64,000 nt of DNA from Chiloscyllium plagiosum (taxonomy: Eukaryota): NCBI RefSeq assembly GCF_004010195.1, contig NC_057718.1, positions 78,758,631-78,822,630 of the forward strand, written 5' to 3'. Numbering within the stretch: the stretch's first letter is position 1; every line of letters starts with the position of its first letter. Shown one piece after another: positions 3,730-57,358 of the stretch. The position numbers and the translations under genes are program-made. The notes under the pieces are model-generated. The model was not told the origin of the DNA. It saw nothing but the letters and a program-made list of their open reading frames with translations, and did no database searches.

Positions 3730-3875
3730 CTGACAGTTGCCAACACTATGTTCAATATTTCCTGCACACAGTTCGCTGTTTTTCACACTTCCATCCAAAT
3801 GTTCAGGCTGATTGCAAATGTTATTTTCTATCACTGAAAAACCTGCTTCTTTTAAAACCCCATCACGTCCAGTTC
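3730..3875 (-). CDS. plg: Plasminogen-like exon 18 equivalent: TGRDGVLKEAGFSVIENNICNQPEHLDGSVKNSELCAGNIEHSVGNCQ
   Basis: Within ORF 3706..3918; tttag/gtatg; 146 bp; VGNCQ replaces TDSCQ. Confidence 0.94.
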
Positions 3876-6573
3876 CTAAAACCAAATGGGACAAATGAAA
3901 AAGAATTCCAGAAATCAACAGCTATTTGTATTCATACAACACCTTTATTGTTGTAAAACATTTCAAAATGCTTCATGGGAACATTATCAAATAAAATTGG
4001 ACACAAAAGCACATAATGCATTATTAGAATAGGTAGCCAAGCTTGGTTAATGAATTAGGCTTAAGGAAGAGAGAAACATTGTGGTGTATTAATTTCTCAA
4101 GCTTAAAATCTATACAACTGTAGGCACAGCTATCAATGTGGGATTATGAAAATTGGATTTCTGCTTCGTAAGGTCTGTTCTTATTTTCCCTCTCATGAAA
4201 ACACTCAAATTTACAAATGCAAGAAAATGCAGTGTTAATAGTTTGAGATATTCTGCTCATTCCTTGCTCCTTCTTCATTGAGAGGCCACTATATCCATTC
4301 ACCCCAAATATGTGATTCTGAGCCTAGCTGCCCTTCCAGCTTTAGCGCCATTGAATACAGGAACTCTGCAGATTCTGACCTATAGTATTGACAGGCTATT
4401 TGTGCAGAAATTCATTACAATAAACTGTTCCACAGATGTGAGATGTAAGTTTGTACCAGCTGTCTAAAATATTTATCTGTGCATTTTTAATATTTTAGAT
4501 TAAGACAACTAATGTTATAGGCAAGTGGGATATAAATTGAACAAAGTACAAGTTCATTTAATTTTGGAAAAGAAAACTCATGAGTTTATATTTGACTTTT
4601 TTAACAGTTGACATTTTTGGCACTACAGCATGCACTAATATAAATGGCATGTAGCATTTGTGTCACCCAGGTGCCAGGGTAATGACTATGCCCAACAAGA
4701 GAGACTCTAACTATTGCCCATTGATATTCAATAGAATTATAAATGCTGGAAGACCAATTATGATCATCCTGGAGGGTTACCATGATCAGAAGCTAACTGG
4801 ATTATCCAAAACAACACTGTGGATGCAGAAGCAAATCTAGGAAAAGCAAAAGCAAAAGCTAGGAATTCTGTGTTGACCAATTTATCTCTTGCCTCCTTAA
4901 CTTCTGTCCTCAGGTCAGAAGTGAAGTGGAATACTTCCCACTTTTTTGAATGAATGCAGCTTCCACAACACTGAGGAAGCTTTACACCACCTGGACAAAC
5001 CATCTCATGTAATTGGTGCCCCATCCATTACCTTCAACATTCACTTCCTTCACCACCAATGCTATATGTATCATCTGCAACGTGCACTCCAGAACCCAGC
5101 AGTTTATAAACTCACAATTTTGACCACCTAGAAGAGCAGATAAATGGGAACACCACCACCTAAAGATTTCCCACCAAACCACACACCATCCTGACTTGAA
5201 ACTAAATTGCTGTTTCTTCACTGTCACTGGGCCAAAATCCAGGAACCCCCAACAGTACTTGGGTGTCTCTACACCCCAATGACTGCTACAGTTTAGGAAG
5301 TCAGTTCATCACTAGCTTCCTGAGGGCAATTAGAATGGGCCATAAATGCTGGCCTAACAAGTGATGCTCAATAACCGACAAATAAAATTTTAAAAATACA
5401 TAGGAACATTGGCAACAGTGACAAGATAATTGGTGCCAGTGAAATTGAAATGGGGTCCTCCAATCTTCACCCAATATTTTTCTTTGAAAGCCTTGCATGT
5501 TTCTTTAACTTGCTTAGATGGATGTTCATGTGATTTTAAATCACATTGTTCATGTTTGGCCATTAGGACGCTACTCTGGCCTCCTGAGACTAGTTTCGTT
5601 TGCTCATTGGCTTGAATAAATACTCTTCAGCATTTCTTTTATCACTTCTTTAAGGGTAATGATTTTAGTTCAACCAAAAGCCTCCATTTTCTCATGCAGT
5701 TGCTGTTACCTTTGAAATGTTGCCTCAGTCTTGGTTATTACAAGATGAAACTCTTCAACCATGTGCCTCTATCTTCAACAATATTCTATCCTGTAATGCA
5801 AAGTGACTATTTGTTTAGCCTATCAAGTTCCACAATGATCAGAGCTAATACGTATCAATTAACTGCAAGCCAGCCTTGTGGTTCTGTGGTAGTGTCACTA
5901 CCTCTGAGCCAGGAGGCCTGGGTTGAAGTCCCACCCATTCCAGAGGTGTATAACAACGTAGAGTCATCAAGTCATAGAATCAGCATGGACACAGACTCTT
6001 CGCCTCAAACTGGTCCATGCCAACCAAAATGTTCTTCCACACTAACCCCATTTCCTGGAACCTGGTCCATATCCTTCTAATCCTTTCCTTTCCAAATGTA
6101 CAAATTGATTAGAGGATCTCTCTCAATGGTTGTGCATGGTCCTGATGTTCCAACTTGCAAATCAAAGAGTTTGCATTTTCTCTCTTCCAGTTTGTTTGCC
6201 ATTCATTGTGGCCAAGGATTGGATTCCATACATTTGTTGAATTCAGAATCTAAGCTCCACGCATGTGGCTATGGTAGATCAGCATTTTACAATGACAGAG
6301 GTTGTACAACTTAGGTAGTATTGAGGGTGTATAGCAGAGACCTTATCAATGAGGAGGTTGTACATTGGCAGAGAAATGGATCACTTCAAACCGATTGGAC
6401 ACAAAGGCTCAATGATATCAGCGTCCAAGGAACAATGAGCAAACTTGGAATCAACGCTTTTAGAAGAGGATGGGTGAACAAGGACACAAATTAGAGAAGA
6501 AAAAGAGGAAAGATAAAAGCAAACAATTAAGAACACGTTACTTTATTTGATCAACATTTGTGTTAATGTGTAC

Positions 6574-6680
6574 CTTGAGTTTCACCCCAGCCTGAAACAT
6601 AGCATTCAGCTCCATTTGGTAGTATATAGTCCTGTGTTGGTAAACAGATTAATGCCACTTTGTCAGTCAGGACAGCTGGC
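6574..6680 (-). CDS. plg: Plasminogen-like exon 17 equivalent: PAVLTDKVALICLPTQDYILPNGAECYVSGWGETQ
   Basis: Translated by hand; CLP...C.V.GWGETQ; ttcag/gtaca; 107 bp. Confidence 0.94.
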
Positions 6681-7424
6681 CTGAAACCAAAAGCAGTATC
6701 GCAAATCATTTTTTATTTTTATTTAATTTGCATCAGGTCATTACTTCTTAACTATCAGGTCTGTATACTTCTTTTTAAAAAAAATGATGGAAATTAGAAA
6801 CAAAAACAGAAATTGCTGGAGAAACTCAGCAGGTCTGGCAGCATCAGTGGAGAAAAAGCAGAGTTAATGTTTGAGTTCCAGTCACCTTTTTTCAGAACTG
6901 CCTCAAAACCATTGGATAGGGAATCCAGAACCTGACAACCCTCAACCCCTCCATTGATCTGAACCCGAGGAACCCACACTCCTTTCCTCTTGGCCCCTTC
7001 ATCCCCACTTACTCCTGCCAGCGCTGACATTCTCCTTGGCCACTGCTGGCCTTAATACCCTCCTCAGCTTCTTCAGGGTCCAACATTCCTCCTGACACAT
7101 CCATTCCCCCAGCCCTCCAGCAACTTTCCTGAGTACTCCATCATATACCTGACACAATGCTCACCTAGTAACATACTTACCTGGCACCCTACATGGCACC
7201 CTTGTCCCCTGCACATCTAGAAATCTAACCCCTTACCCAGCTGCCACCCTTTCACTCCAGTCGACTTAAATACAGTAGCTACCTGTCTACGCTGGTGGAC
7301 ATTCAAATCTCAGAACTCAGCACATTAACTGCTTCAAAGAGGTGTGCGGTTTGACTCACCCCCAACTATCCTCCGCTATGGAGGAACTTTGTTGATTTCA
7401 AATACGCTCCATATTTCTGAACAA

Positions 7425-7720
7425 GAACTAGAAGGCATAGGTTTAAGGTGAGAGTGGAAAGATTTAAAAAAGGACCTGAGGAGTAACTTTTCCACCCAGA
7501 GAGTGGTATGTGTATGGAATGTGCTGCCAGAGGAAGTAGATGGGTACAATTACAACATTTAAAAGGTATCTGGATGGTTATGTGAATAGGGAGGATTTAG
7601 AGAGATATGGGCCAAATGCTGGAAATAGGACGAGGTCAGATTGGGATGTCTGGTTGGTGCAGATGAGTCAAAACGAAGCATCTGTTTCTGTGTTGTATGA
7701 CTCTATGATTCTATGATTCT
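7425..7720 (+). mobile_element. CR1 LINE 3' end
   Basis: gggcataggtttaaggtgaga...tttaaaag.atctggatgg-like sequence and (ctatgatt)n tail. Confidence 0.8.
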
Positions 7721-8754
7721 AAAAAGAAGAAAACAAGGAAAATTAAGGACTAAAACTTCCAAAATATAAAATGTTCTGAATCTATAAGAATTTGCTGCAT
7801 ACTGAAATGATATTGAACAGTTGAAACTGACCCATTTCTGGGTTAGAAAGGTTGATTAGCATTGTATTAATACTGATCACATTGTTGAAATAGTAATTAT
7901 ACTCTTAATTAAGAATGCTAATTTTCTGTGATAAAGTTAATGAGCAGTTAATGTGCTAAACTAGCAAGTTCTTAAACATACAGTAACTAGAAGGCTAAGG
8001 ATCAAGATGTCATTTATGCAAAGCAATTTCTGCTGAATCTCTTAATCCCTTAACATGTTGGACAACCGGTGCAGTAACAATATTGCATGTTATTAACGCC
8101 CACTATTTTTCCAGAATGCATGACCTGTTAAATGTTAATATGAAACTATAGCCTTCACAGTTGGCTAGAATTTTATGTACCTTGAGGGCAGGATGGCATG
8201 GGTGGAGGGCAGGAAACTAAACATCAGCACCAGCATTACACCTGCCATCAACGTGGCCTGACTTTCAATTTTACCAATACGAGTGGAGGCATTAAGTAGC
8301 CACTTAAAGACCACCCTTGCCACCACTGGGATTTTACCTGTCATAGGAGAAGTCATCGGCAAGTGGAACTTGATGGATTCATGTTTGGACATTATGGGTG
8401 TGCCTTCTTTCTGTGTCCACTATGTCCATCAGAAGCCTCTCCAATGATATTAATGCCCCCTTCTGCCCACACCCTCGGCAGGGTCTGCCAGCTTGTCCCT
8501 GCTTTCCTGGACTCATCTCCCAGTTCAGGGTTCCTCACTGAACAACTTCCTAGGGGATTGTTGTACTTCCAGGTGGTCACTCTTTGAGATGGAGCTTCCA
8601 CAATCTCACACTGCTGGTTAAAAGGGCAAACTAGGGGCAGATAAAGATTGCTTGAATTCAGATCAGTATATATTAATCCTACAGTATGCAGAGGCTCTTA
8701 CGGTGCAGAAGGTAGACCTTCTCAGAAGCACTGCATCATCATGAACACAGAAGA

Positions 8755-11700
8755 CCATATAAACCCAAACAATATAGGAGTTGGATAAGGCCATTTGGCC
8801 TACTGAGTCTAATCTGCCATTCGATCATGGCTGTTATGCTTTTCAAACCCATTCTCACCCTTCTCCCCCTAACCCTTGAACCTGTTACCAATCAAGAACC
8901 CATCTCTATCTTAAAGGCACTCAATAACTTGGCCTTCGCAGTCTCCTGTGATGACGTGATCTACAGATTCAGCGCCCCTCTGGCTGAAGAAATTTCTCCT
9001 CATCTCAGTCTTAAAGGGTTGTCCCTTTACTCTGAGGCTGTGGCCTCCGGTCCTATCTCTCCTACCAGTGGAAACATCATCTCCCTGTCCACTCTATCCA
9101 AACCTCTCAGTATTCTGTAAGTTTCAGTCAGTACCCCCTCATCCTTCTAAACTCTATCAAGTACAAACTCAGAGTCCTCAATCACTCCTCATATGACCAG
9201 CCCTTCACTCCCGGGATTAATCTTGCAAACCTCCTCTTGACCACCTCCAATGGTGACTCGGGTACAGGGCCTAAAACTGCTCCCAATATTTCAATGTGGT
9301 CAAACCAAAGCCTCATGCAGCCTCAGCATACACTCTGCTCTTGTTTTCTATTCCTCTTGAAATCAATGCTAACACTCCATTCGCCTTCCTAACTGCCAAC
9401 TCAACCTACATGTTAACTTTAATAGAATACTGATCTAGAATTCCCAAATCCCTTTCTGCTTCAGTATTCTGAAGCTTTTCTCCATTTAGAAAATAGTCTA
9501 CACCTGTATTCTTCCTATCAAAGTACATAACCTCATACTTTCCCACATTATATTCCATCTGCCAAGTTTATGCCCACCCTCCCAGCCTGTTCAAATACTC
9601 TGCAACCTCCCCACTTCCCCAACACTACCTGTCCATCCAGCTGTCTTTGTGTCACCTGCAAACTTAGCACAATGACCTCAGTCCATTTTGTCCAGATGGG
9701 TAATGAACAATGTGAATAGTTGTGGTCCCAACACAGATCCCTGCAGAACTATAATAGTCACTGGCTGCCACCCTGAAAAAAGACCCTTTTATCCCCCCTG
9801 TTTACCTTCTGCTGATCAGCCAATCCTCTATCCATGACTACCTTGCCCCTAATACTGTGGGCTCTTACCTTATTTAGCAGATTCCTGTGCGGCACCTTGT
9901 CAAAGGCCTTCTGGAAATCAAAATAGATTAAGTCCACTGGCTTCTTTTGTTTAACCTGCTCATTATCTCTTCAAAGAATTCTAACAGATTTTCCAGGCAT
10001 GACCTGCCATTGATGAAGCCATGCTGATTCAGCCTTCTTTTACCATGCATTTCCAAGTACTCTGCAATTTCATCCTTAATAATGGACTCTAAAATCTTAC
10101 CAGCTGAGCTCAGGTTAAATAGCTTCCTGTCATTTGCCTTCTTAAAAAGGGGTTTTACAAAACCTAATGTCTAGTTCTCTGGCACCCTCCCTGACCCCAG
10201 TGATTCCATAAGACAATAAGACTATAAGACAGGAGCAGAAATTAGGCCATTCAGCCCATCAAGTCTGCTCCACCATTCAATCATGGCTGTTAGGTTTTCC
10301 AACTTGTTCCCTGTAATCTTTGATCCCCTTGGCAATCAAGAACTTATCTATCTCTGTTTTAAATAGATTTAATGACCTGACCTTCATAGCCTTCTGTGGC
10401 AATGAATGCCTCAGATTCACCACTCTCTGGCTAAAGAGCTTCTCCTTATCTCTATTCTAAAGGGTCTTCCCTTTATTCTAAGGCCATGTCCTTGGGTCCT
10501 CATCTCTCCTGCCAATGGAAACATCTTTCCAATATCCACTCTGTTCAGGCCATTCAGTATTCTATAACTTTCAATCAGAACCCCACCACCCACCCCATCC
10601 TTCTAAACTCAATTGAGTACAAACCCAGTCGAGTATAGTCCCAGAGTCCTCAAATTTTCCTCATATCTTAAGCATTTCATTTCTGGGATCATCCTTATGA
10701 ATCTCCTCTGGTCCTGCTCCAGTGCCAGTCCATCCTTCCTGAGGTATGAGGCCCAAAATTGCTCACAATACTGGAAATGTTGTCTGACTAGGGCTTTATA
10801 AAGCCCCAGAAATATGTTCCTGTTTTTATAATCTAGTCCTCTCAGGATGAGTGATAACATTGCATTTGCCTTCCTAATTAACGTCTCAATCTGCAAGTTT
10901 ACCTTAAGAGAAACCTGGACTCGGACTCCAGAGTCCCTTTCTACTTCAGACTTCTGAATTTTCTCCCCATTTAGAAAATAGCTCATTCCTACCAAAGTGC
11001 ATGACCTCACACATTCCCACATTGTATCTCAGCTATCACTTCTTTTCCCATCTCCTAACATGTGTAAATCTCTCTGCAGCATCCCCACCTCCTCAATACT
11101 ACCTGCCCCTCCACCTATCTTTGTATCATTTGCAAACCTAGCCAGAATGCCCACAGTTCCTTCATCTAGATCATTAATGAAAAGTTGTGGTTCCAACACC
11201 AACTTTGTGGAATACTACGAGTCACTGGCTTCCGTCCTGAGAAGGAGCCTTTTATCCCCACTCTCTGCCTTCTGCCAGACAGCCAATCTTCTATCCATGC
11301 TAGTACCTTATCTCTAATACCATGGGTTATCAAGAAGGATTACACCCGAAATGTTGACTTCTCCACCTCCTGGTGCTGCCTGGCTTGCTGTGTTCTTTCA
11401 GCCTCTTGCCTGTCTACTTTGGATTCCAGCATCGGAAGTTTTTTTTGTTTCTTATCTTACTCCGCAGCCTTTTGTGTGGTATCTTATCAAAGGCCTTCTG
11501 GAAGTCCAGATAGATAAGATCAATTGGCTCTCCTTAGTCTAACCTGCTCATTATCTCCTCAAAGAACTCTAACAGATTCATCAGGCATGACCTCCCCTTG
11601 ATGAAACATGCTAACTTTGCCCTATTTTACCATGCACTTCCAAATATTCAGAAATCTCATCCTTCCCAATGGACTCCAAAATCTTACCAACGATTCAATT

Positions 11701-12805
11701 CAGGCTAATTAGCCAATAATTTCCCATCTTTTGCCTTACTCCCTTCTTAAATGGGGGTTTACATTAGTGATTTTCCAGTCGTCTGAGACCCCACCTGACT
11801 CCAGTGACACCTGTAAGATCACTACTAAAGCCTCCACCATCTCTTCAACTATCTCCTTCAGCACTCTAGGGTGTAGCCCATCTGCTCCAGGTGATTTATC
11901 CACTTTAGATCTTTCAGTTTTTCTAGCACCTTCTCCTTAGTAATGATTACTATACTTATCTCTGCCCCCCAACTCTCTTGAATTTTTAGAATATTACTCA
12001 TATCTTCCACCTTAAAAGATCACTACCAATGCCTTCATAATCTTCCCAACTATCTCCTTCAGAACTCTAGGGTGTAGCCCATCTAGTTCAGACCTTTTAG
12101 ATTCCTCACCACCTTCTCCTTAATGACGGCCACTGCACTCACTTCTGTCCCCAATTCTCTTGAGTTCTCATATGTTACTGATGTCTTCCACTGTAAAAAC
12201 TGATGTAAAGTACCTATTCAGTTCTTTCACCATTTCTTTGTTTCTCGTTACTACTTCTTCAGCCTCATTTCCAGTGGTTCAATGTCAAATCTTGCCTCTC
12301 TTTTACCTATATCCAAAAAACTCTTACAATTTTTTGTATCACTAGATGGTTTGCTTTAATATTTCATCTTCTCTCTTGTTTTTAGTGATCCTCTGTTGGG
12401 TTTTTAAAGCTTTCCAATTCTTGTCTGCCCACTAATATTCGCCACATTGTATGTTATTTCTTTTGCTTTTATGCTGTCCCTGACTTCCCTTGTCAGGGAT
12501 GGTTGCCTCATTCTCCCCTTAGTTTGTTTCTTCTTTCTTAGGATGAGGTTCTGCTGTTCCTCCCAAATTACCCCTAAAAACCCCTGCCACTGCAACTCCA
12601 CTGTCTACCTTGTTAAGCTCCCCTTCTATTAATTCTAGCTGGCTGCTCCCTCATGTCTTTGTGGTTACCTTGACTCAATTGTAATACTGTTACATCTGAT
12701 TCCAGCTTCTCCTTCTCAAACTGCCAGCTCAATTCTATCATATGGTCACTGCCCCCTAGGGTTTCCTTCAACCTAAGCTCCCTAATGAAGTCTGCCTCAT
12801 TGCAG
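8755..12805 (-). mobile_element. Adjacent/nested decayed CR1 LINEs (second 3' end at ~10205)
   Basis: ORF 10609..11022 (YKALVRQHFQYCEQFW) is RT C-terminus; LGGSDH endonuclease remnant near 12750; many stops. Confidence 0.85.
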
Positions 12806-13000
12806 AAGAGGAGGTGCCAGTGTTGGACTGGGGTGGACAAAGTTCAAAATCACACAACACCAGGATATAGTCCAACAGGTTTTATTTGGAAGTACCAGCT
12901 TTCAGAGCGCTGCATCTTCATCGGGTAGCTAAGCCTCATTACAGAAGGAAATAAATCATTAAAACAAAAGACAAATGTAAAACAGAAATAAAAGTAATAC

Positions 13001-13141
13001 CTTTTAAGCTTTAATAAAGCAATGTCATTCCCACTGGGTTCGAGAAAAATTTTGTCAACCAAAATGATCTGTCTCGATGGTTCAGCTCCTCTTTCTCTGT
13101 ATATTCCAAGATAGACTCTGTAGGCCAAGGGGTTCAAGGAA
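13001..13141 (-). CDS. plg: Plasminogen-like exon 16 equivalent (Asp102 region): SLNPLAYRVYLGIYRERGAEPSRQIILVDKIFLEPSGNDIALLKLK
   Basis: Overlaps ORF 12850..13137; DIALLKL motif; cacag/gtatt; 141 bp. Confidence 0.94.
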
Positions 13142-13578
13142 CTGTGATGGATGCAATGAAGGAGTTAGATACTTGTACTTTTTAACAAAAATAATAGCTT
13201 GCATTGAAATAGTATCTTTACCATTATTAGCTGCTCAAAATGCTCCATGGAAATATTACCAATACCCAACAAAATGTGTCATTGAGTCATGTAAGAAGAT
13301 ATTGGGAGAGATGCCCAAATAGGTCGTCAAACTGGTAGGTCTTAAGGAACATCTTGAAGGATGAGAAATTGGTTGGGCAGTAAAGAGCTTACACTTAAGG
13401 CACCTGGAGGTGTTACTGCCAGGAGTGAAGTGACGTATCAGTTGAAGTGATGATGCCGTGGGGAAATGTAGAAGCATGACTGAGAAATTGAAATAAAAGT
13501 GTTGCCACACTAGAATTCAATGTTGGTCATTGTGAACAGGGGTCATTAGGATTACGATCTAAAGCATCAATCGCTTAC

Positions 13579-13653
13579 CGTTCTAAACACTGTTTGGCTG
13601 TTACCACCCACTTGGTATCAATAAGACTTCCTCCACAGAAGTGAGTGTCAAAA
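13579..13653 (-). CDS. plg: Plasminogen-like exon 15 equivalent (His57 region): FDTHFCGGSLIDTKWVVTAKQCLER
   Basis: Translated by hand; HFCGG.LI...WV.TA.xC; tacag/gtaagc; 75 bp; catalytic His position is CAG (Gln) at 13590-13592. Confidence 0.94.
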
Positions 13654-13787
13654 CTGTAATATACAAGACAGTTTTAATGATTTAACATCAATTGATTTAA
13701 AGGCTTTCAAAGTAAGCTTCAGCGGTTTGCAATAATACCATGCAAATAATGTTAAAAAATATAGTTCAACAGGTTTAATTGGAAGCA

Positions 13788-13822
13788 CACTAGCTTTCAG
13801 AGCGACGCTCCTTCATCAGGTG
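13788..13822 (-). ncRNA. Minimal hammerhead ribozyme motif (third Penelope-type family), sense to host pre-mRNA
   Basis: CAC-CUGAUGA-A-GGAGC(GUC)GCUCU-GAAA-GCUA-GUG; degenerate sibling at ~12895-12928. Confidence 0.7.
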
Positions 13823-15182
13823 ATAGTGGAGAGCTCGATCGTAACACAGAATTTATAGCAAAAATTTGCAGTGTGATGTAACTGAAATTATACATTGAAA
13901 AATTGATTGTCTGTTAAACCTTTCATCCGTTAGAATACAGTGATAGTTTCACTTCTTTCATTTGTAAATCACAAACCCTTTTTTTTTAAAGTTGCACTCT
14001 CGGGTTAGCTGCTAACAATGGTGATTGCTAGACAATATGTTGAAGGTGTTCTCCAAATCATGCAAATAATGCAATGTGTAAAAATCCTCATCTCCCCTGA
14101 TCTTTTCACCAACTTGTAATGCCTGTGTTTAAAAGAGTAAAAAGTGATTTGATTGAAGCATACACAACCCTGATGGATCTTGATAGTGTGGATGTGGAGA
14201 GATGTTGTCTCTTTGTGGAAGAATTTAGAACTAGGGATCACTTGTCGAGACAATCACAATTTTTATTTTATTTTTCTCATTTTCTAGCTTGGAACAATTG
14301 ACCTTGAACTTGGAACAGCAACTCTTTACAAAAGTGAAGCGAACAAAGATAACTGCTTTTCGTTGGGAATTTGCCTGGAAAAATAACACAACTTAATTAC
14401 TCGTCTATGAACATTGTAGTCGAATTAGCACTGAGGTGTTCCTATGCTCAGGGTTGGCAATTTGTTGGATGTTGAGTTGCTCCAACAAGCAACTGCTGCT
14501 AACCAGCCAACCACAAAGAATGTTGATTGAAAAGTGAAAAAAATCAAGAGAGAACCAGTTCTGACTGTTTGGCAGGAGGCACTATGAGTTTTGGAGATTT
14601 CCAGAGACAATATCGCTTGGTTCTACTCTCTCTCTCTCTAGTTTCTTTCCAATTATCAAATTGTTGAATATCCTGAGAATCCCAGTCTGTAAGAAGAAAA
14701 TAAATATTTCTAAAAGTCTGCTGAGCCTGTTTGCATTAACAGTGACTTCAGAATTTAAGCAAGATAAACAATTCTACTTGCTTGTGAACAACCCATTATC
14801 CAAGGATTTCATGAAGGTCTACTATCAATTGATGGAAACTGTTTATTGAATTGTCAAATTTTAATTCTTTAATTTTCTTTGTCAAATTATCCCTTAACAG
14901 TGTGTGTGTGAGAGAGTGGGGGTTATGATCAAAAAAGATTCGGCTTTAGATTGTAGATATTAATTACATTTACTGTGTTGTTTACCTGTGTTCTGCTAAA
15001 TTTACATTATTAATAATAATTTCTTTAACTTTTGTCTAAGTTATAAACTTGGTGACCAAAGACTGTTATTTATAAAATCTGGCTAGGGAGAATTGGGCAG
15101 TTATTGAATGCTTTTAATTTCCCTGTGCTGTGAATCCAGTGATAATGAAACGATTTGGTTTGGCTTACTATCCCTGTGTCAT

Positions 15183-15903
15183 GGATCAGTGGTGCTGGAA
15201 GAGCACAGCAATTCAGGCAGCATCCGAGGACAGGCAAAATCGATGTTTCGGGCAAAAGCCCTTCATCAGGAATAAAGGCAGAGAGACTGAAGCGTGGAGA
15301 GATAAGCTAGAGGAGGGTGGGGGTGGGGATAGAGTAGCATAGAGTACAATAGGTCAGTGGGGAAGGAGATGAAGGTGATAGGTCAGGGAGGAGAGGGTGG
15401 AGTGGATAGGTGGAAAAGGAGCTAGGCAGGTCGGACAAGTCCAGACACGTCAGGTCATCGTATTGCTGGAGGTTAGATACTAGGATGAGGTGGGGGAAGG
15501 GGAAATGAGGAAACTGTTGAAATCCACATTGATGCCCTGGGGTTGAAGTGTTCTGAGGCGGAAGATGAGGCGTTCTTCTTCCATGCGTTCCCCTGACCTG
15601 TCCGGACTTGTCCGACCTGCCCAGCTCCTTCTCCACCTATCCACTCCACCCTCTCCTCCCTGACCTATCACCTTCATCTCCTTCCCCACTGACCTATTGG
15701 ACTCTATGGTACTCTATCCCCACCCCCACCCTCCTCTAGCTTATCTCTCCACGCTTCAGGCTCTCTGCCTTTATTCCTGATGAAGGGCTTTTGCCCGAAA
15801 CGTCGATTTTGCCTGTCCTCGGATGCTGCCTGAATTGCTGTGCTCTTCCAGCACCACTGATCCAGAATCTGGTTTCCAGCCTCTGCAGTCATTGTTTTTA
15901 CCT
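15183..15903. mobile_element. Penelope-type foldback insertion with long inverted arms and 15-bp TSD
   Basis: ~15183-15450 mirrors ~15592-15863; ctatccctgtgtcat at 15168-15182 and 15904-15918; hammerhead motif on each arm. Confidence 0.85.
15773..15808 (+). ncRNA. Minimal hammerhead ribozyme motif
   Basis: CUGAUGA-A-GGGC(UUUU)GCCC-GAAA-CGUC. Confidence 0.7.
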
Positions 15904-17281
15904 CTATCCCTGTGTCATACCAATTTAAAATAGATTAGGTGAAATATTTTTCTCAGAGAGAGTCATGAGTTCTTGAACTTTCTTTCTAAATGTTGGAAGC
16001 AGAGTCCCTGAATATTTTTAAGACAGATATAGATAGATCTTGCTAAACATGGGGTTGACAGGTTCTCAGGGATAGGTAGGAATGTTGATTCTTGGTTACA
16101 GTCAGATAAGTCATAATCTTAGTGAATGGTGGAGCAGACTTGTGGGGCTGAGTGGTCTACTCCTGCTCATGATTTGTATATTCAGCTGTTCATGAGCACC
16201 TCCTCTCCTCTGAGGGAAGTAAATCTTAGTTTCTATAGTTTCTACACCTCCCTGAAGTTCCACATCCCAGGAACCATCCTTGCATATTTTCTCTGTTCCC
16301 TCTTCAAAGCCAGTCCTCCCTCTTGTATCAACTCATCTCTATCATTTCAGTGTTTTCTGAAAAGTTCATGGAATTTGGGGCTCACTTTCAAGCCCGGCAT
16401 TCATTATCCATTCTCAAACGCCCTCAAAAAAGTGGTCATGTGCAGCTTTCTGAAACCTCTTTCGCTTACATGGTGAACACTCTCCCAAAGTGAAACTATG
16501 AAGAGAGTTCCAGGTTTTAACTCAGCAACAGAAGATCCTGAAGAAGGGCTAATGCCCAAAACGTCGATTCTCCTGTTCCCTAGATGCTGCCTGACCTGCT
16601 GCGCTTCTCCAGCAACACATTTCCATCTCTGATCTCCAGCCTCTGCAGATCTCATTTTCTCAACAGAAGATATAGTTCCAAGTCAGGATGATGTGTTGCT
16701 TGATGGGGAATTTGCACATTGTAGTAGTATTCAAATTCATATTCCTTGACCCTCTAGGCAGTGGAGGTCAAGGAAGTGCTGTTGAAGAAGCCCTGATACA
16801 TTGTGTAATGCATCATGCATGATGATGCACACAATTACTACTATTCACTGGTAGTAGAGAGTCAGATATAGGCTGGTTTGTCCTGGGTGGTGCCTAGAAT
16901 TTTTTTGGAGCAGCACTCATCCAGGCAAGTGAAAAGTATCCCATCACAAAACTGAGCTGTGCCTTGTAGATGGTGAAGAAATTTTTGAGGATCAAGAAGA
17001 TGTTTCTAGCAAGTGCCCATCTGTCTAAGGGCAAATTACTGCAGATGCTGGAATCTGAACTGAAATCAAAAAAGTGTTGGAGATAACACTGGGTCAGGCA
17101 GCATCCATGGTGAGTTATCTGGACTCAAAACATTGGTTTCCATGTGTCTTGTAGCCACAGTATTTATGTGGCTGGTCAAGTTAAAGATTTTAGTGTGTAA
17201 CAGTGGTTAGTAGCATGACTTCACTTGTAACTTATCGAAGAAAAATATTCTTATCATATGTTTCTGAGGCAAATCACTTAC

Positions 17282-17402
17282 TTAATGCGAAGACTAACTT
17301 GCCAAGGCCAGGAATATGGTTTGGATATACAGCCACCAACAATACTTCCAAAACATCTCTTGGGTTCAACACTAGGCCTTCCACATTCATTAGACTGTTG
17401 TT
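17282..17402 (-). CDS. plg: Plasminogen-like exon 14 equivalent (activation loop): [39 protein letters not shown]
   Basis: Translated by hand; CG.P.VEPK.C.G.(I/V)VGGC...[10 protein letters not shown] is plasminogen-type; ctag/gtaagt; 121 bp; P1 codon AGT (Ser) at 17344-17346. Confidence 0.94.
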
Positions 17403-18599
17403 CTAGCATCACAAAAAGATAATTTAGTCGTATTATTCATTTTCTGTTCACATCCCCTTTCACCAGCATTGCCAGGATTCTATTGCTAACCTGGTCAGCT
17501 TGATGCCACATTACCTTAGGAGGAGAATGATCATCTTCAATAATCAAATGACAAATAATTCATGTCCAAAGGCATGAATTATAGCATTTCACTATTTCAT
17601 ATTAATCCAGCTTCAGCCAAAGCTGTGACTGAGTAAATTAAACTAATAACGGTAAGTGAATTCACACATCCTAGAGTATTTGAATTATAAATACAAATCC
17701 TCCAAGGATGGGTTTAGTAAACAAAGCCAAAATTTCTTGCCGTCCACCAAACTTAGCAGCTAACTAGAACATTTCACAAAACATTTAACAGATTGGTGTT
17801 GGACTGGAGTCACATATCCATTCAACTAGATAATCATAACTGGTTTGCTTCCTGAAGTTTTACAACAATCCATCAGCTTCACAGTCACTTTTTAATTTAC
17901 TATTTCTAAAGTTAAAAAAATTAAAAAGTCTCAAACTCCAGATTGGGATTTGGATTCATGTTCTCTGGATTATTAGCTAAGATTTGTGGATTGCTCCACC
18001 CAGTAACATGATATTGCTCTTGCCAAGGCAGTTCCAGTACTCATACTCCTCACATGACATGGTGCACCGCTGATGACTTATAGGTTCTAACAACTATAGG
18101 TTTACCTGGCTAACATGAAAGGCTTTCCTTACTCTTCCACCCATTGTTTGTGACAAGGTTAGATAATTACCAACTTGATTTGTTAGCCATAGGTAGCTGG
18201 GAGTACTCCAAGGTTTCCTTCTCAAATTGAGAAGGAAGGTAGAGGGGTGGAGGCAAATGTCAGAAGATGAGGTCCTTCCGTGGTAACAAGGTGGAGCACA
18301 TTCATTCCGTGTGTTGGAAATTGAGAGGGAAATCATGAAATTTTTTGGATCATGTGCAATATGTCAAAAAAACGAAACTGGTAGGAAAGACCACAGATCA
18401 GATTGTAGTTTTAAGCACAGCTAAGAGATCAAAGAGACACTGCTGACAGTGCAGAAAAGTACACAGGTAGATCAGTGACATGAAGAGTTTTTATTTAGAG
18501 GGAAGCATCTAAGTCCATAATGATATTAAAGGATATGGAGGCTACTTAAACTCTCTTGCTGGAAAAGGATTTAGTTTTCCCTCCAAAGAGTTCAAAGTA

Positions 18600-23812: not shown

Positions 23813-23956
<144 letters not shown>

Positions 23957-24286: not shown

Positions 24287-25158
24287 GTGTAGGTTTGCTC
24301 GCTGAGCTGAAAGGCTCATTTCCAAACGTTTAGTTACCTTACTAGGTAACATCCTCAGTGGACCTCATGAGAAGCAATGCTGAAAATTCCTGCTTTCTAT
24401 TTATATGTTTGGGTTTCTTTGGGTTGGTGATGTCATTACCTGTGGCGACGTTATTTCCTGTGGTGAATTCACTTCCTGTTCCTTTTCTCAGGGGGTGGTA
24501 GATGGGGTCTAACTCGATGTGTTTATTGATAGAGTTCCAGTTGGAATGCCATGCTTCTAGGAATTCTCGTGCATGTCTTTGTTTGGCTTGTCCTAGGATG
24601 GATGTATTCTCCCAGTCAAAGTGGTGTCCATCCTCATCCATATGTGAGGATACTAGTGAGAGAGGGTCATGTCTTTTTGTGGCCAGTTGGTGTTCATGTA
24701 TCCTGGTGGCTAGTTTTCTGCCTGTTTGTCCGATGTAGTGTTTGTTACAGTCCTTGCACGGTATTTTGTAAATGACATTAGTTTTGCTCATTGTCTGTAC
24801 AGGATCTTTAAAGTTCATTAGCTGCTGTTTTAATGTGTTGGTGGTTTAAGGGCTACCATGATGCCAAGAGGTTTGAGAAGTTTGGCAGTCATTTCTGAGA
24901 TTTCTTTGATGTAAGGGAGAGTGGCTAGGGTTTCTGGACATGTCTTGTCTGCTTTTTTGTGTTTGTTGCTGAGAAATTGGTGGACATATAAATAGAAACA
25001 TATAAAATAGAAAGCAGGATTTTTCGGCATTGCTTCGCGTGAGGTCACTGAAGATGTTACCTAGTAAGGTAACAAAACGTCTGGAAATGAACCTTTCAGC
25101 TCAGCGAGCAAACCTACATCCAAAACCTCAACCTGAGCTACAAATCTTCTCAAAACTC
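24287..25158 (-). mobile_element. Penelope-like element (GIY-YIG endonuclease part) with inverted terminus and 13-bp TSD
   Basis: ORF 24342..24818 NVIYKIPCKDCNKHYIGQTGRKLATRIHEH; ggtattttattga at 24274-24286 and 25159-25171. Confidence 0.9.
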
Positions 25159-28505: not shown

Positions 28506-28696
28506 CTGGTTGACCATCAGTCACTTGCAAGGCCTCGCTGCTTCTTCCGTGTACAGGAATTATAGTGGGGGATTGAGATGGTGAAGCACCACACTTTGAA
28601 ATCCTACAATATTCCCATCGGACCAAAGGGTCAGTTGTGAAGCACCAAGGAGCCTTATCCTGATCAGGATTTCTACAGTAGTTACCAAATAGACCC
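28506..28696 (-). CDS. plg: Plasminogen-like exon 11 equivalent (kringle 4 second half + K4-K5 linker): [63 protein letters not shown]
   Basis: Within ORF 28492..28725; cacag acceptor, gtaac donor; 191 bp keeps frame. Confidence 0.92.
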
Positions 28697-43378: not shown

Positions 43379-43379
43379 C

Positions 43380-46240: not shown

Positions 46241-46459
46241 CATATACCCTTGGCCACACCCATTTGCATCCTATCAAGACTTATATAATAGCCAGAGATC
46301 CTCCATAAAGTTTTAAGATCCCTCAGCTGCCATAATATCATTGGTTAGAACAGGGTCTTAAGTGAAAGGGATCAGAGACAGCAGAGCACAAAAAACAGTC
46401 TTCCGGACAAGTCTGCAAAAGATCTACCCAAATGGTCTCACTAGCTTACTCTTTACTTG

Positions 46460-46990: not shown

Positions 46991-47119
46991 TGTTATATAT
47001 GTTTGACAAAGGGTCAGTTTGACTTGAAATGTCAGCTCTTTTCTCTCCTTACAGATGCTGCCAGACCTGCTGAGATTTTCCAGCATTTTCTCTTTTGGCT
47101 GTTATATAACTCTCTGACT

Positions 47120-49321: not shown

Positions 49322-49569
49322 TTGTGTAGTGGTCATGGACTAGTAAACTAGAAGCCAGGACTAATGCTTTGTGGATATTGGTGCAAATTCTACCTTTGCA
49401 CTACATAAACTCAATTTGTAAAATTTGGACTCAGTAATGTTGACCATGATATTAGCACAAATTTCTCATAAAACTCTATTTAGTTCTTGAAGATCCTTCA
49501 GCAAAGAAAATCTTTACCTAGGTCTGGCCAAAATGTGACTCTAGACCAAGAGCAATATAGTTGACTGTT

Positions 49570-51711: not shown

Positions 51712-53655
51712 TTGGACATAGAACATCGAACATTACAGTGCAGCACCTGCCCTTTGACTCTTGATGTTGCGCCACCCTGTGGAACCAATTTGAAGCACAT
51801 CTAACCTACACCATTCCATTCTCATCCATATTCTGGATTAGTGGTGCTGGAAGAGCACAGCAATTCAGGCAGCATCCGAGGACAGGCAAAATCGACGTTT
51901 CGGGCAAAAGCCCCTCATCAGGAATAAAGGCAGAGAGCCTGAAGCATGGAGAGATAAGCTAGAGGAGGGTGGGGGTGGGGAGAGAGTAGCATAGAGTACA
52001 ATAGGTAGGTGGGGAAGGAGATGAAGGTGATAGGTGAGGTTTCACGGGATGTTCCCTGAAGTGAGAGGTCTCAGCAAAAAGTTAACTTTTGTTTGGGGTC
52101 TGTGGAGCAGAAGAGGCTAAGGGGGCAATTGATGCAGACATAATGGTGAGTGATATAGACTGGGCCGATTGTGATAAATACTTCCGCGATGTAGGCATGT
52201 CTTAGACCAATTGAATTAAGGTTAAAGTGAAAAATGAAGCATTTCGCGAGGATCTGATGGAAAAGCAAATTACCCAGGGGATGGGTCAAATATGGAACAT
52301 GTTGCCTGAGAGGGTAGCTTATCTCTCCATGCTTCAGGCTCTCTGCCTTTATTCCTGATGAAGGGCTTTTGCCCGAAACGTCGATTTTGCCTGTCCTCGG
52401 ATGCTGCCTGAATTGCTGTGCTCTTCCAGCACCACTAATCCAGAATCTGGTTTCCAGCATCTGCAGTCATTGTTTTTACCTCATTCTCATCCATATGCCT
52501 ATCCAATGATCATTTAAATGCTCTTAAAGTTGGCGAGTCTACAACTGTTGCAGGCAGCGCATTCCATATTTCTACTATTCTCTGAGTAAAGGAACTACCT
52601 CTGACATCTGTCCTATGTCTGTCACCGCTCTGTTTAAAGCTATGTCCCCTCAAAGACAGCACCATCAGAGGAAAAAGGTTCTTATTGTCCACCCAATCCA
52701 ACCCTCTGATTATCTGATATGTCTCAATTAAGTCACCTCTCAATCTTCTTCTCTCTAATGAAAACAGCCTCAAGTCTCTCAACCTTCCCTCATAAGATCT
52801 TCCCTTTACATCCTAGTAAATCTCCTCTCAATCCTCTACAAAGCTTCCATATCCTTCCTATAATGCAGTGACCAGAACTGCACGCAATACTCCAAGTGTG
52901 GCTGCACCAGAATTTTATACAGGTGCAGTATGACCTCATGGATCCAAAACTCAATCCCTCTGCTAATAAAAGCTAACACACCATATGCCTTCTTAACAGC
53001 CCTATCAACCTGGGTGGCAACTTTGAGGGATCTATGTACATGGACACCAAGATCTCTCTGTACATCTACATTATAAAGAATCGTACAAGTACTCTGCATT
53101 CCTGTTACTCCTTCCAAAGTGAATCACCTCACACTTTTCTGCATTAAACTCCATTCGCCAACTCTCAGCCCAGCTCTGTAACATGCAACATCCTTCAGCA
53201 CTATCCACAACCCCACCAACCTTGATGTCATTCACAAATTTACTAACCCATCCTTCCACGCCCTCATCAAGGTCGTTTATAAAAATGACAAACAGCAGTG
53301 GACCCAAAACAGGTCCTTTCGGTGTACCACTAGTAACTAAACACCAGGATGAACATTTCCCATCAACCACCACCCTCTGTCTTCTTTCAGCTAACCAATC
53401 TCTGATCCAAGCCACTAAATCACCCTCAATCCCATGCCTCCGTATTTTGTGCAACAACCTACCATGGGGAACCTTATCAAACACTTTACTGAAATCCATA
53501 TACACCACGTCAACCGCTTTACCCTCATCCACCTGTTGGGTCACCTTCTCAAAGAACTGAATAAGGTTTGTGAGGTACGACCTATCCTTCACAAAACTGT
53601 GTTGACAATCTCTAATCAACTTATTCCTATCAAGATGATTATAAATCCCATCTCT
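51712..53655 (-). mobile_element. CR1 LINE (RT to 3' end) interrupted by a Penelope-type insertion
   Basis: ORF 53071..53619 YMDFSKVFDKVPH..G.VLGPLLF.IFINDL; ORFs 52836..53117 and 52510..52782. Confidence 0.9.
51832..52481. mobile_element. Penelope-type foldback insertion with inverted arms, two intact hammerhead cores and 15-bp TSD
   Basis: cattctcatccatat at 51817-51831 and 52482-52496; arms ~51832-51961 vs ~52315-52445. Confidence 0.85.
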
Positions 53656-54579
53656 TGTTTATTTCACATTCTCCTCTCCACCTCCAAATATTCGGATGGC
53701 ATCTGTAAAAGGCACCCTTGTTTCTGTCAATGATGAATGAGGTACTGAAGGATTAGGCTCTGGGAAATGAAATGGATCAAGCAGAGTTAGGGGAAAAGGT
53801 AAGAACACTGATATTGTACTATAATGTTTAGGTCATCTGCAGGAAAGAACAAGGGGCCATGTTGACCAAAATCGGTTAACTGCAGGATGGCCAGTTTCAG
53901 CAGAGAGGAATAAGAATATTGCAGAGTTAAATTGGAATTACAAATTACTTAGTTGCACTTTTGCCTGTCAATGAACAACTTTTAAAGATAGTGTAGATTA
54001 TAAAGTGGTTGTAAAATTATTTTGTTAAGAGCGTGCTCAGGTTAAGAATCTGGTAAATGTGGGAATTCTCTGCAGAGTGGTAAAAGTAAATTTTAAATGT
54101 TTTTTCCTAGAGCTAATGTATAGTTTTCATTTATCTATAAGCTAGGAAACTAGCCTGTTATTGCTTTACTTAAATTACTAAATTAATAACTTAAACTAGA
54201 TAAATTAATCAATTAATAAAACTAAAATAAAGGGTCTGGGTAGTGCTGTGGTAGTTTCCCTACTTCTGGACCCAGAGTCCGAGTTCAAGTCCCACAGGCT
54301 CCAGAGGTCTGTAATAACATTGCTGGTTTGAAAACATTTAAAACTAAAATAATCAATTCAACTAAAATTAATTAACTAATTAAATAAATGAGTACATTTT
54401 GATTGAAATGGTAAGGCAGATAGGGCGATGTAATCTGAAAGATTGTGGGAAGCATTGTGATACCTTACAACCATATCTGTGCTACGTCTGTAGCTAAGAC
54501 CCGTGGTTCAGATGATTGGTGAGGGGTAGAGGGAAAATGAATAGGTTAGGGTTGCAGTAGGTAGTCATTTTGACGCTTT

Positions 54580-55218
54580 TAGAAGGCTTTAGGTATGCTT
54601 GCCTTTATTGGTTAGTGCATTGAGTTGGGAGGTCATGTTTGGCTGTACAGGACATTGGTTAAGTCACTTTTGGAATACTGCATACAGTTCTGGTCTCCCA
54701 GGTTTAGGAAGGATGTAGTGAAACTTGAAAAGGTTCAGAAAAGTTTTACAAGGATGTTGGCAGGGTTAGGGCATTTGAGCTATTTGGAGACGCTGAATCA
54801 GCTGGGGCTATTTTCCCTGGAACATTGGAGGCTGAGGAGTGACTTTATAGAGGTTTATAAAATCATGAGGGGCATGGATAGGCTGAATAGCTAAAGTCTA
54901 TTCCCTGGAGTGGGAGAGTCCAAAACTAGAGGGCATAGGTTTAAGGTGAGAGGGGTAAGATGTAAAAGGGACCTAAGGGGCAACTTTTTCACACAGAAGA
55001 TGGTGCGTGTATGAAATGAGCTGCCAGAGGAAGTGGTTGAGGTTGGTAAAATTACAACATTTAAAAGTAATCTGGATGGGTATATGAATAGGAAGGGTTT
55101 ATAAAGATATGGGCCAAATGCTGGAAAATGGAACTACATTAATTTAAGAGATCTGGTCAGCATGGACATGTTGGACCAAATGTCTCTGTGATGTAAAGCT
55201 CTACGACTCTCTGACTCT
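54580..55218 (+). mobile_element. CR1 LINE 3' part
   Basis: ORF 54625..54894 LYRTLVKSLLEYCIQFWSP. Confidence 0.85.
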
Positions 55219-55912
55219 TTGTTCCAGGATGGAGTCATGGGGTTAAACAAAGCTTAATGTTCAGTCAGCAGTCAAAAACAGGAAGGTGTGAGTCAGAGTC
55301 AGGCAATTAAAGGTTCCTACATGTGATTATATTGTGTCCAGGCTGATACAAAGTGCAGGGAGAAAGTGAGGACTGCAGATACTGGAGATCAGAGTCAAAA
55401 GGTGTGGTGCTGAAAAAGTACAGCAGTCAGATCGCATCCAAGGAGCAGGAGAGTCAATGATTCGAGCATAAGGTCCACATCAGGAATTCTCCTGCTTCTC
55501 GGATGCTGCCTGACTGGCTTGTTTTTCCAGCACCACATTTTTTGACTCTGATACAAAGTGCAGTAGTGACAAAGTTTTGCACTGTGAGATGTGCTATTTA
55601 TTTTAGAAGTAATGATAAATTTCACTGCTCTGTTAATTTTCAATCACCACCAGCAAGACAGACTAACTGAACATACACCTCACTACGGCCTTTTACCATC
55701 TTGCTGCATGCAAAATATCTGATAACTAAGAGTGCAGTTCGGGGCCATTGCAATGCTTTGGGAAATTGTAGGACAAGAAAGGCAAGATAGAATGGCTCTT
55801 TCCTTCATTCTTTACCTTAATTTCTAACTTTCTCATATGTAATTTTCCCTAACTGTGTAACAAATAATAGGGTGCCGGAGCAAAAACAGTGTGTAACACA
55901 ACTTGGACAAAC

Positions 55913-56520
55913 TGTGACGATGCTGTTCCTTTAACAAGCTTGTGTTTGTCTTTGGTTTTTATTCAGAAGTGTTGTACGAGGCAGAGTTGATCTGGCTTGA
56001 TCTACTTGAAGAAGCTTTTAAGTTTAAAAAGACATTTGTACAATGGAAGTTCTCTCAGCTCAGCTTTTCTCTGGTTTGGTTTGGTTGGGTTTTAGCAGTC
56101 TGGCCGTTCAGAGCAAGCAGTCAGTCAGTCAGTTTTGAGGCAGTTGGTCAAAGAAAGAGCTACATAGGAGAAGGTGTTCTCTGCTGAATCTTTCTGCCAT
56201 CTCTTGCTCTCATGTTTGGTTTTTCCTTTTCTACCAAGGGATGTTTATGGGATTGTTGCAAGTATTTGGAACAACATCACTCAGTTGCGATAGATTTGAT
56301 GGAGTTTTTAACTAGTTAAGCTATTCTATATTCTGTTCGCTTTTGTATGTGTTTCATTTGGTAATCTTGCAAATAAAATCTGTTTTGTTTAAAGCTAAGT
56401 GGTTGGGCCAGCTGCATCACTCCTGGAATATCCACCATACACCTGCTTAAAACAACTAGAAACATTAGGGTCTGGGCTACTTTCTTAAATGTTTTGAGGG
56501 GGTCTAGCCTGGACCATAAC
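55913..56520 (+). mobile_element. Probable solo LTR
   Basis: Begins TGTGACGA, ends ..ggaccataac, internal AATAAA (~56371); TSD not identified. Confidence 0.45.
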
Positions 56521-57239
56521 TGGGAAATTCCATGGAAAATTCCTTTTATGTATTAATTTCCCACATTTTATCCTCAGTAGTGAAAAGATAATACCCATTG
56601 TTGACTTCAAAGTTTTACTAATCATTTCATTTCTCCTAATGTTAATCTGAACCAACTTTATGTTAAGGAAATCTTGAGGCACTGAGCTACAGTGATAGCA
56701 TCAAATAGGATAAGCAGAAATTTTCACAACAGAATTCAGAAATTTTCATTGGCTTGATTTGATTGCTCATGCATCACACCAAAAAAAGTGTATCAGACAT
56801 TTAATTATCATTTCTTTTGGGACATTAAATCAGTAGTAACAAAAAATAATTTAATGGAATTGAACAACAGGTGGTTTCTGAAGAAACAGTAGAGGAATCA
56901 TTGGTTTTGACATTTATTAGAGCATGGTTTCAGAATGGAGGTGAGGAGGGCAGCGTACCCATTTTGAACTATTGTGAACTAAAGTACTACCATAGAATCT
57001 TTAATGTTCACCTGAGGGGGCCCAAAGTTCAATATCTCATTTGACAACAACATCTTCAACAATCTAGCACTTTGTTCAGTATTTCAGTAAATATGGAACA
57101 GTACAAGTCAATAGAAGGAAACTTGCACCTATTAAACTGGTTCAGATCAAATTACCATGTCCTAAAAGTAAAATAACAGTATGCTAATTCACCTTGAAGC
57201 CAAATCCTCAAGAACCCACGAAGAAAATGAAAAACTTAC

Positions 57240-57358
57240 TACAACGTGGAACATTGCAGAATGCCCATCGCTTTTGGGTATCAGTTGTAAAACACCATGG
57301 CCTGGGTTCTCCATCAGGATTACGACAGTAGTTCTCCTCGAAATATTTATCTGGAAAA
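57240..57358 (-). CDS. plg: Plasminogen-like gene, exon equivalent to PLG exon 7 (kringle 2, second half): [39 protein letters not shown]
   Basis: Kringle motif NYCRNPD..PWCFT..RW..C....C; ttcag acceptor and gtaag donor; 119 bp, phase 2->1. Confidence 0.93.

Follow-up and report, generated by a model that had tools for sequence, protein, structure and literature searches.

A tandem paralog of plasminogen that lacks key catalytic residues is intact and transcribed in the shark Chiloscyllium plagiosum

Introduction

What is a gene of plasminogen architecture for, once residues that make plasminogen an enzyme precursor have gone? The question is raised by a stretch of 64,000 nucleotides from the genome of the bamboo shark Chiloscyllium plagiosum (the window: contig NC_057718.1, here C9, positions 78758631-78822630 of the 3.56-Gb assembly), which carries, on the minus strand, exons 5-16 of the 17 exons of a plasminogen-like gene that we call PLGL. 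Duplicates of plasminogen that have lost catalysis are known from primates (apo(a)), the hedgehog, birds and the coelacanth. What apo(a) does in physiological terms remains a matter of debate, and PLGL offers a natural replicate for asking what function is selected in such copies. The original prediction, made from the letters of the window, was that the gene is a selected, non-catalytic plasminogen paralog and not a decaying pseudogene. The analysis reported here – of the complete gene, its neighbor, its transcripts and its orthologs – finds that reading well supported: PLGL is neither a pseudogene nor a copy of HGF or MST1.

Results

PLGL is an intact gene beside a canonical plasminogen

Motif scans and stop-to-stop open reading frames (ORFs) were used to locate kringle halves, the activation loop and protease exons; exon ends were chosen by scoring donor and acceptor sites that keep the frame, and full gene models were built from the flanking DNA and from RefSeq proteins threaded onto the genome. 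As predicted, the 12 exons in the window (Table 1) form one stop-free frame: all 24 splice sites read AG/GT, and the joined exons (1588 nt) hold a single frame of 529 codons without a stop, the remaining two frames being interrupted by 48 and 20 stops. The end points first proposed coincide exactly with splice sites, 3730 being the last donor and 57358 the first acceptor. The complete coding sequence (CDS) of 2190 nt gives a translation identical to RefSeq P0132 ('plasminogen-like isoform X1', C. plagiosum, 729 aa). Frameshifts were looked for in the exons outside the window, and these proved intact, the 17-exon CDS matching P0132 exactly; stops, frameshifts and damaged splice sites are absent from all 17 exons and 2190 nt. 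Pfam finds Kringle in five stretches (E 9.7e-143), one each of K1-K5, and Trypsin (E 5.2e-54). ORFs at window 14581-14408 were considered as the His57 exon and rejected (no fitting frame) in favor of the exon given in Table 1. A further RefSeq model, isoform X3 (P0001), begins with ~115 residues that come from the K2a, K2b and K3a exons read out of frame, probably a model artefact or a non-productive transcript.

A canonical plasminogen was sought alongside PLGL and lies on the same strand with its catalytic residues intact. A Pfam kringle scan of the genome returned two five-kringle runs on C9, both on the minus strand; the second belongs to a 19-exon gene ~61 kb downstream of the last PLGL exon, the translation of which is identical to RefSeq P0136 ('plasminogen', 797 aa). 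This copy has the motifs CFGR/IIGG, TAKHC, DIALLKL, AVDSCQ and GDSGGP, retains P1 Arg, His57, Asp102, Asp189, Ser195 and Trp215/Gly216, and has its PAN exons. The neighbor is the canonical enzyme precursor, and PLGL is its tandem paralog, arranged head-to-tail. The two proteins are 72% identical (515/714 aligned residues). The plasminogen-type exon sizes that had been claimed for PLGL are borne out by comparison with the canonical gene: sizes are equal in 14 of the 16 exons common to both (exon 1 excluded) and in 11 of the 12 window exons, the K4b/linker exon measuring 191 nt in PLGL vs 167 nt in the canonical gene. Synonymous divergence between the genes is lower in the K2 exons (0.15) than in K4-K5 (0.55-0.94), which hints at gene conversion between the tandem copies.

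Two four-kringle loci, on contigs C18 and C23 (Table 1), are candidates for HGF and MST1. Comparisons of single kringle exons with the PDB do not discriminate between these identities.

Inactivating changes and loss of the PAN domain

Diagnostic positions were assigned by residue-by-residue alignment to human plasminogen (4a5t). The P1 residue of the activation site is Ser (AGT, window 17346-17344) in the context CFGS/IVGG, aligned to the Arg of human CPGR/VVGG; position 57 is Gln (CAG, window 13592-13590; TAKQC) and position 189 is Gly (GGC, window 3741-3739; SVGNCQ). Asp102 (GAC, window 13026-13024), Gly193 and Asp194 are kept. Read from the codons, the three changes first proposed are thus all present; the count of three was too low, as the last exon adds Ser195>Thr (GDTGGP) and a 2-residue deletion that takes out Trp215/Gly216, and the PAN domain has been lost. 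Lacking the activation Arg, the general base, the nucleophile, the Asp of the S1 pocket and some of the S1 wall, PLGL should, on the basis of serine-protease chemistry, resist conversion by plasminogen activators at the usual bond and would not be a plasmin-like protease.

PAN_1 is not matched by Pfam in P0132; the canonical P0136 has it (E 2.3e-9). Exon 1 of PLGL (signal peptide) splices directly to the K1a exon, and skipping the two PAN exons keeps the frame because the introns on either side of them are both in phase 1 in the canonical gene. The first PAN exon (PAN-a) survives as a relic just downstream of PLGL exon 1. Within 136 nt it has suffered changes of the acceptor (AG>AA) and the donor (GT>CT), three 1-base indels and stops in all frames; both PAN cysteine codons are lost, and identity to the canonical exon is 76%. 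No relic of the second PAN exon (PAN-b) was found upstream of PLGL. The decayed, unused PAN-a exon is a useful internal control for the 17 exons in use, all of which are free of lesions.

Transcription and reliability of the sequence

Contigs from four public runs (four studies, three organism labels) were placed on window positions 3700-17450. The joints 3874>6573, 6679>13000 and 13141>13579 occur in all four runs, and 13653>17282 in three; the skipped ends are CT..AC on the plus strand, i.e. GT..AG on the strand of the gene. Since the contigs are spliced at exon boundaries they are transcripts, although the run records do not state RNA. Depth is 274, 33, 402 and 68 for the spliced contigs and 3-12 for the unspliced intron pieces listed (runs X1 and X2). 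PLGL is intact, spliced and transcribed, and the expression that had been left to verify is found in every one of the four runs.

The same contigs bear on the possibility that the Arg, His and Asp changes are assembly errors. The spliced contig of run X10 shows 0 differing letters in the pieces listed for exons 3730-3875, 6574-6680, 13001-13141 and 17282-17402; among the differences listed (88 further rows of the table lie outside this set) none falls on a diagnostic codon. The letters of PLGL are not assembly errors. Exonic differences across the four runs number at least five: Asn>Ser, Ile>Met, one synonymous change, Glu>Ala and Ser>Ile. Ile>Met at window 6623 (X1 and X2) and Ser>Ile at 17372 (X1) are probably polymorphisms; X10, which carries the organism label of X1, matches the assembly. 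For the exon at 28506-28696, 16 of 16 sampled words occur in 9 listed runs; the kinds of these runs were guessed, and the result is not used as evidence of expression.

PLGL is conserved about as strongly as plasminogen

Whether PLGL is a selected paralog or a decaying pseudogene was judged from its lesions (none in 17 exons), its cysteines and its rate of divergence. From K1 to the C-terminus, 44 of 44 cysteines are kept in the PLGL of C. plagiosum, C. punctatum and Stegostoma, and none is extra. K4 of PLGL has Lys35, Asp54, Asp56, Trp60, Phe62, Arg69 and Trp70 (a passage of PMC11555715 lists the seven lysine-binding residues of kringle IV-10 and K4), and the matching residues are present in K1. 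Columns invariant in 23 plasminogens, from sharks to mammals, are unchanged in the four orectolobiform PLGL proteins at 142 of 150 kringle and 73 of 87 protease positions. Invariant columns changed in at least one of the four (8/150 vs 14/87) are thus over-represented in the protease domain (Fisher p 0.009), and the 14 include P1 Arg, His57, Asp189, Ser195, Trp215 and Gly216. The changes are therefore concentrated on the catalytic machinery, which agrees with the original prediction that they gather at functional residues.

Amino-acid divergence between C. plagiosum and Stegostoma is 15.3% (kringles) and 16.7% (protease) for PLGL vs 12.6% and 15.4% for the canonical protein; between Rhincodon and Stegostoma the figures are 4.9% and 7.9% vs 3.8% and 6.3%. 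Over the same species pairs PLGL has evolved at only 1.1-1.3 times the amino-acid rate of canonical plasminogen. A dN/dS near 1 was looked for and not found: between the two C. plagiosum genes the value (Nei-Gojobori) is 0.38 (dS 0.46), the kringles giving 0.31 and the protease domain 0.47, as an average over two lineages and not a value for the PLGL branch. As these sequence comparisons show, PLGL – dead protease domain included – is conserved about as strongly as canonical plasminogen.

Extra plasminogen copies in other sharks

Relatives were collected by searching proteins with the portion of P0001 that is read in frame, a search headed by shark plasminogens and 'plasminogen-like' proteins, and members of the clusters were added. 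The extra-copy models include P0131 (Stegostoma), P0138, P0122 and P0125 (Rhincodon and Scyliorhinus, named 'plasminogen-like'), P0004 (Mustelus asterias) and P0007 (Cetorhinus maximus); P0131, a RefSeq 'plasminogen' of 1512 aa, fuses the dead copy with the canonical gene. In each species of Table 2 the extra copy and the canonical gene lie on contigs of equal size. A second copy is not listed for Heterodontus, Pristiophorus, rays or Callorhinchus among the best 120 hits, which does not prove its absence.

Extra copies are disabled by different lesions in at least three shark orders (Table 2). Four orectolobiform species have Gly189 and Thr195 in common, the two Chiloscyllium species also have Ser at P1, and Gln57 occurs only in C. 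plagiosum: judged from this distribution, the lesions of PLGL differ in age. The frame is open in the PLGL of C. plagiosum, C. punctatum and Stegostoma.

A maximum-likelihood tree was computed from 31 proteins (805 columns), P0131 being split into its two halves and extra N-terminal stretches being cut from P0126 (Carcharodon) and P0133 (Hemiscyllium). PLGL nests inside the shark plasminogens, not with HGF/MST1, in a clade (100/98) of orectolobiform, lamniform and carcharhiniform plasminogens. The four orectolobiform PLGL proteins form one clade (100/100), and the duplication therefore predates the divergence of Chiloscyllium from Rhincodon and Stegostoma. The hemiscylliids branched off at least as early as the split between nurse shark and whale shark. 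The latter is put at ~100 million years in a figure quoted in PMC9207270.

The PLGL clade is part of an unresolved four-way split with the orectolobiform plasminogens (100/100), a lamniform group that includes the Cetorhinus copy, and a carcharhiniform group that includes the Mustelus and Scyliorhinus copies. A single clade of all eight extra shark copies is rejected on the whole-protein alignment (AU p 0.005); a duplication confined to the orectolobiforms is compatible with the data (p 0.25). The Mustelus and Cetorhinus copies share a 4-residue deletion in the Asp189 segment, and the tree places each with its own order. Some gene conversion is indicated because of this common deletion and of the difference in synonymous divergence between K2 and K4-K5. 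Three duplications would account for the data, and so would a single old duplication whose traces gene conversion has blurred. An N-terminal M[V/I]QIRIK extension, present in orectolobiform and Mustelus PLGL, was discarded as a mark of common origin: the canonical 5' leader encodes the same residues behind a GTG.

Outside the sharks, an 'apolipoprotein(a)-like' protein of the teleost Conger conger (P0017) has Gln at P1, with His57, Asp189 and Ser195 intact, and from its sequence is possibly another non-activatable copy.

Other features of the window

Retroelement pieces lie in the introns of PLGL (Table 1), with matches to RVT_1 (E 1.2e-18) and Exo_endo_phos_2 (E 9.4e-7); an intronic GIY-YIG match is weak and under the cut-off, and a similar ORF is found in another intron. 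Runs of N leave the exons untouched, the 157-base run falling within an intronic reverse-transcriptase-like ORF.

Table 1. Coordinates of PLGL, its exons and other features (window positions unless a contig is given).
Feature	Position	Strand	Remarks
PLGL, complete gene	C9:78875216-78756023	-	17 exons
Exon 5, kringle 2 second half (K2b)	57358-57240	-	AG/GT, in-frame; 92% identity to canonical K2b
Exon 6, K2-K3 linker and kringle 3 first half	45451-45289	-	extra inter-kringle Cys
Exon 7, kringle 3 second half	45029-44908	-	Asp-x-Glu motif is Glu-Asn-Glu
Exon 8, kringle 4 first half	40770-40614	-	lysine-binding Lys35
Exon 9, kringle 4 second half and K4-K5 linker	28696-28506	-	Asp-Gln-Asp, Trp, Phe and Arg-Trp of lysine-binding site
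Exon 10, kringle 5 first half	26851-26703	-	
Exon 11, kringle 5 second half	23950-23854	-	
Exon 12, activation loop	17402-17282	-	both loop cysteines; P1 Ser
Exon 13, His57 exon	13653-13579	-	TAKQC
Exon 14, Asp102 exon	13141-13001	-	NDIALLKL
Exon 15	6680-6574	-	...ALICLP...SGWGETQG
Exon 16, S1-pocket segment	3875-3730	-	HSVGNCQ
Exon 17 (last)	C9:78756181-78756023	-	GDTGGP and 2-residue deletion; 2.4 kb past low end of window
PAN-a relic	C9:78874927-78875028	-	
Canonical plasminogen	C9:78694580-78613228	-	19 exons
Four-kringle locus	C18:62715061-62747837	+	candidate for HGF or MST1
Four-kringle locus	C23:28893004-28915867	+	candidate for HGF or MST1
Retroelement piece	53074-53658	-	intron
Retroelement piece	32068-32382	-	intron
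Retroelement piece	24345-24845	-	intron
Retroelement piece	30906-31445	-	intron
N run	33462-33618		157 bases
N run	61844-62193		350 bases
N run	C9:78757140-78758630		1491 bases

Table 2. Diagnostic positions in the extra plasminogen copies of sharks.
Species	P1	57	189	195	Remarks
Rhincodon	Arg	Arg	Gly	Thr	no PAN; model lacks K1b exon
Stegostoma	Arg	His	Gly	Thr	no PAN; Asp102 kept
C. punctatum	Ser	His	Gly	Thr	no PAN; 2-residue deletion
C. plagiosum	Ser	Gln	Gly	Thr	no PAN; 2-residue deletion
Mustelus	Arg (then LVHG)	His	4-residue deletion	Asn	PAN kept
Cetorhinus	Arg	His	4-residue deletion	Gly	PAN kept; Cys220>Tyr
Scyliorhinus (two species)					models end after K5, no protease domain

Discussion

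A proposed role and its alternatives

The most likely role of PLGL, to which we give a rough probability of 0.45, would be that of a non-activatable, lysine-binding competitor of plasminogen, a proposal modelled on apo(a) and on the residues that PLGL retains. A signal peptide (judged by eye), followed by kringles 1-5 and a serine-protease-like domain, would direct secretion of a protein that circulates permanently as a single chain and, without a PAN domain to keep it closed, probably in an open conformation. The lysine-binding sites of K1 and K4 could then bind plasminogen's lysine-bearing sites on fibrin and cell surfaces, and such competition would damp fibrinolysis or pericellular proteolysis, as proposed for apo(a). 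The dead protease domain might add a binding surface of its own – a contribution that is probable because this domain is as constrained as the live one.

Several points weigh against a competitor role under selection. P1 Arg is present in Rhincodon and Stegostoma, and His57 in Stegostoma and C. punctatum; since these orthologs keep the P1 Arg, 'non-activatable' describes the state of Chiloscyllium and not a trait of the family. The Rhincodon model is without the K1b exon. Four of the five exonic variants listed between runs are non-synonymous, which gives no hint of strong constraint in recent times (the variants are too few to separate an omega of 0.5 from 1), and the dN/dS given above averages over both lineages. 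A decoy made of kringles would not require a protease domain, yet the domain is conserved, and the mechanism may thus be incomplete. Finally, binding and secretion are predictions from the sequence.

The main alternative, which we regard as rather doubtful, is that PLGL is a signalling or carrier ligand in which the pseudo-protease domain and the kringles bind a receptor, serpin or activator, as the dead protease domains of HGF and MSP bind MET and RON. In favor of a ligand, the divergence of the protease-like domain is close to that of the live domain (16.7 vs 15.4% and 7.9 vs 6.3% for the two species pairs), the greater part of its invariant columns (73/87) is kept, and Gln57 would have its counterpart in HGF and MSP. 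PLGL, however, has no PAN/N domain and has five kringles, not four; in C. plagiosum there is no cleavable P1 Arg, whereas HGF and MSP depend on cleavage for their activity; the protein falls inside the shark plasminogen clade; and Gln57 is seen in only one of the four orectolobiform species.

It is improbable that PLGL, though transcribed, is turning into a pseudogene, with catalysis the first property to go and the remainder in slow decay in a genome that evolves slowly. The lesions are indeed stepwise (Gly189/Thr195, then Ser at P1 with the Trp215/Gly216 deletion, then Gln57), recent exonic variation is mostly non-synonymous, a PAN exon has decayed, K1b is missing from the Rhincodon model and the protease domain from the Scyliorhinus copies, and dN/dS is higher in the protease domain (0.47) than in the kringles (0.31). 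Against this stand 17 lesion-free exons vs at least five disabling lesions in one unused exon of 136 nt, a frame that is open in three species, an amino-acid rate little above that of the canonical gene with all 44 cysteines kept, and spliced mRNA contigs at a depth of 33-402. Replacement of Ser195 by Thr is strongly disabling in trypsin-like enzymes. An enzyme of altered chemistry, with Thr195 as nucleophile and a Gly189 pocket, at least where P1 Arg and His57 remain, is the least probable reading of all: the Stegostoma copy keeps P1 Arg, His57 and Asp102, and Gly193 and Asp194 are retained in PLGL, but the window copy is without His57, P1 Arg and Trp215/Gly216, and the later loss of these residues in C. 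plagiosum, together with His57>Arg in Rhincodon, speaks for catalysis having been dispensable by then.

A wider proposal is more tentative than that of a competitor role. PLGL may be the shark counterpart of apo(a): a dead, non-activatable tandem copy, kept by selection over some 100 million years, either to regulate fibrinolysis or to act as a pseudo-protease ligand, and one of a series of plasminogen decoys that recur across vertebrates. PLGL is old and independently derived, repeats the Arg>Ser replacement of the activator site, and has lost PAN with its dead protease domain strongly conserved. If the proposal is true, the transition from plasminogen to decoy would be a recurrent and predictable outcome of plasminogen duplication in vertebrates. 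There is also a warning for annotation: shark RefSeq models named 'plasminogen' or 'plasminogen-like' include non-enzymes and fused or truncated models, and plasma proteomics of sharks that reports 'plasminogen' may mix two proteins.

Comparison with known systems

RefSeq already names the gene 'plasminogen-like', and an older C. punctatum record reads 'hypothetical protein'. In the open full-text literature searched, outside which most subscription journals fall, no catalytically dead plasminogen paralog of a shark is described.

The plasminogen lineage is where PLGL belongs by its five kringles and trypsin-like domain, its clade, its exon sizes and its 44 cysteines, including the pair of the activation loop. 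Its best match in the PDB is human plasminogen (946.8 bits, query 19-728 on chain 75-790), HGF reaching 518 bits and the beta chain of MSP 193 vs 310 for the catalytic domain of plasmin. It differs from the lineage in having no N-terminal PAN/activation-peptide domain, and from the enzyme precursor in lacking P1 Arg, His57, Asp189 and Ser195.

HGF and MST1 resemble PLGL in combining kringles with a dead protease-like domain. HGF and MSP carry four kringles behind an N-terminal PAN domain and depend on cleavage at the P1 Arg, and the residue at the His57 position, which we take to be Gln in both, would be the same as in PLGL. PLGL is set apart by five kringles, by the absence of PAN and by Ser at P1.

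Extra plasminogen-like genes without some catalytic residues have been described in the coelacanth and in birds (Chana-Munoz et al. 2019, PMC6337849); among the rows shown of its supplement 2 there is one plg-like for Scyliorhinus canicula, and plg-like-2 for birds. Chiloscyllium and Rhincodon are in none of the 9 supplementary files of that paper. The bird plg-like-2 and the coelacanth gene, likewise extra copies beside a canonical plasminogen, belong to different vertebrate groups and are set beside PLGL by description only. The apolipoprotein(a)-like protein of the hedgehog is, in the account of PMC11555715, a plasminogen-derived kringle protein without a protease domain. The Scyliorhinus models similarly end after K5; the window gene, by contrast, keeps its protease-like domain and shows no multiplication of a single kringle.

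Apo(a) is a close parallel. As described in a passage of PMC11555715, it is a plasminogen duplicate adjoining plasminogen in Old World monkeys, apes and humans (head-to-head in humans), in which the Arg of the tPA site has become Ser and the protease domain is inactive with the catalytic triad kept; the domain has been inactivated differently among species, and competition with plasminogen through lysine-binding kringles has been proposed. PLGL differs in having a single set of K1-K5 where apo(a) has many KIV repeats, in lacking an unpaired Cys for the link to apoB-100 (none exists beyond the 44 shared), in its broken triad, in a gene pair that is head-to-tail and in its independent origin, in sharks and not in primates. 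Like apo(a), it is a tandem copy of plasminogen with Ser at P1 and an inactive protease domain, and in sharks, too, the lesions are specific to lineages.

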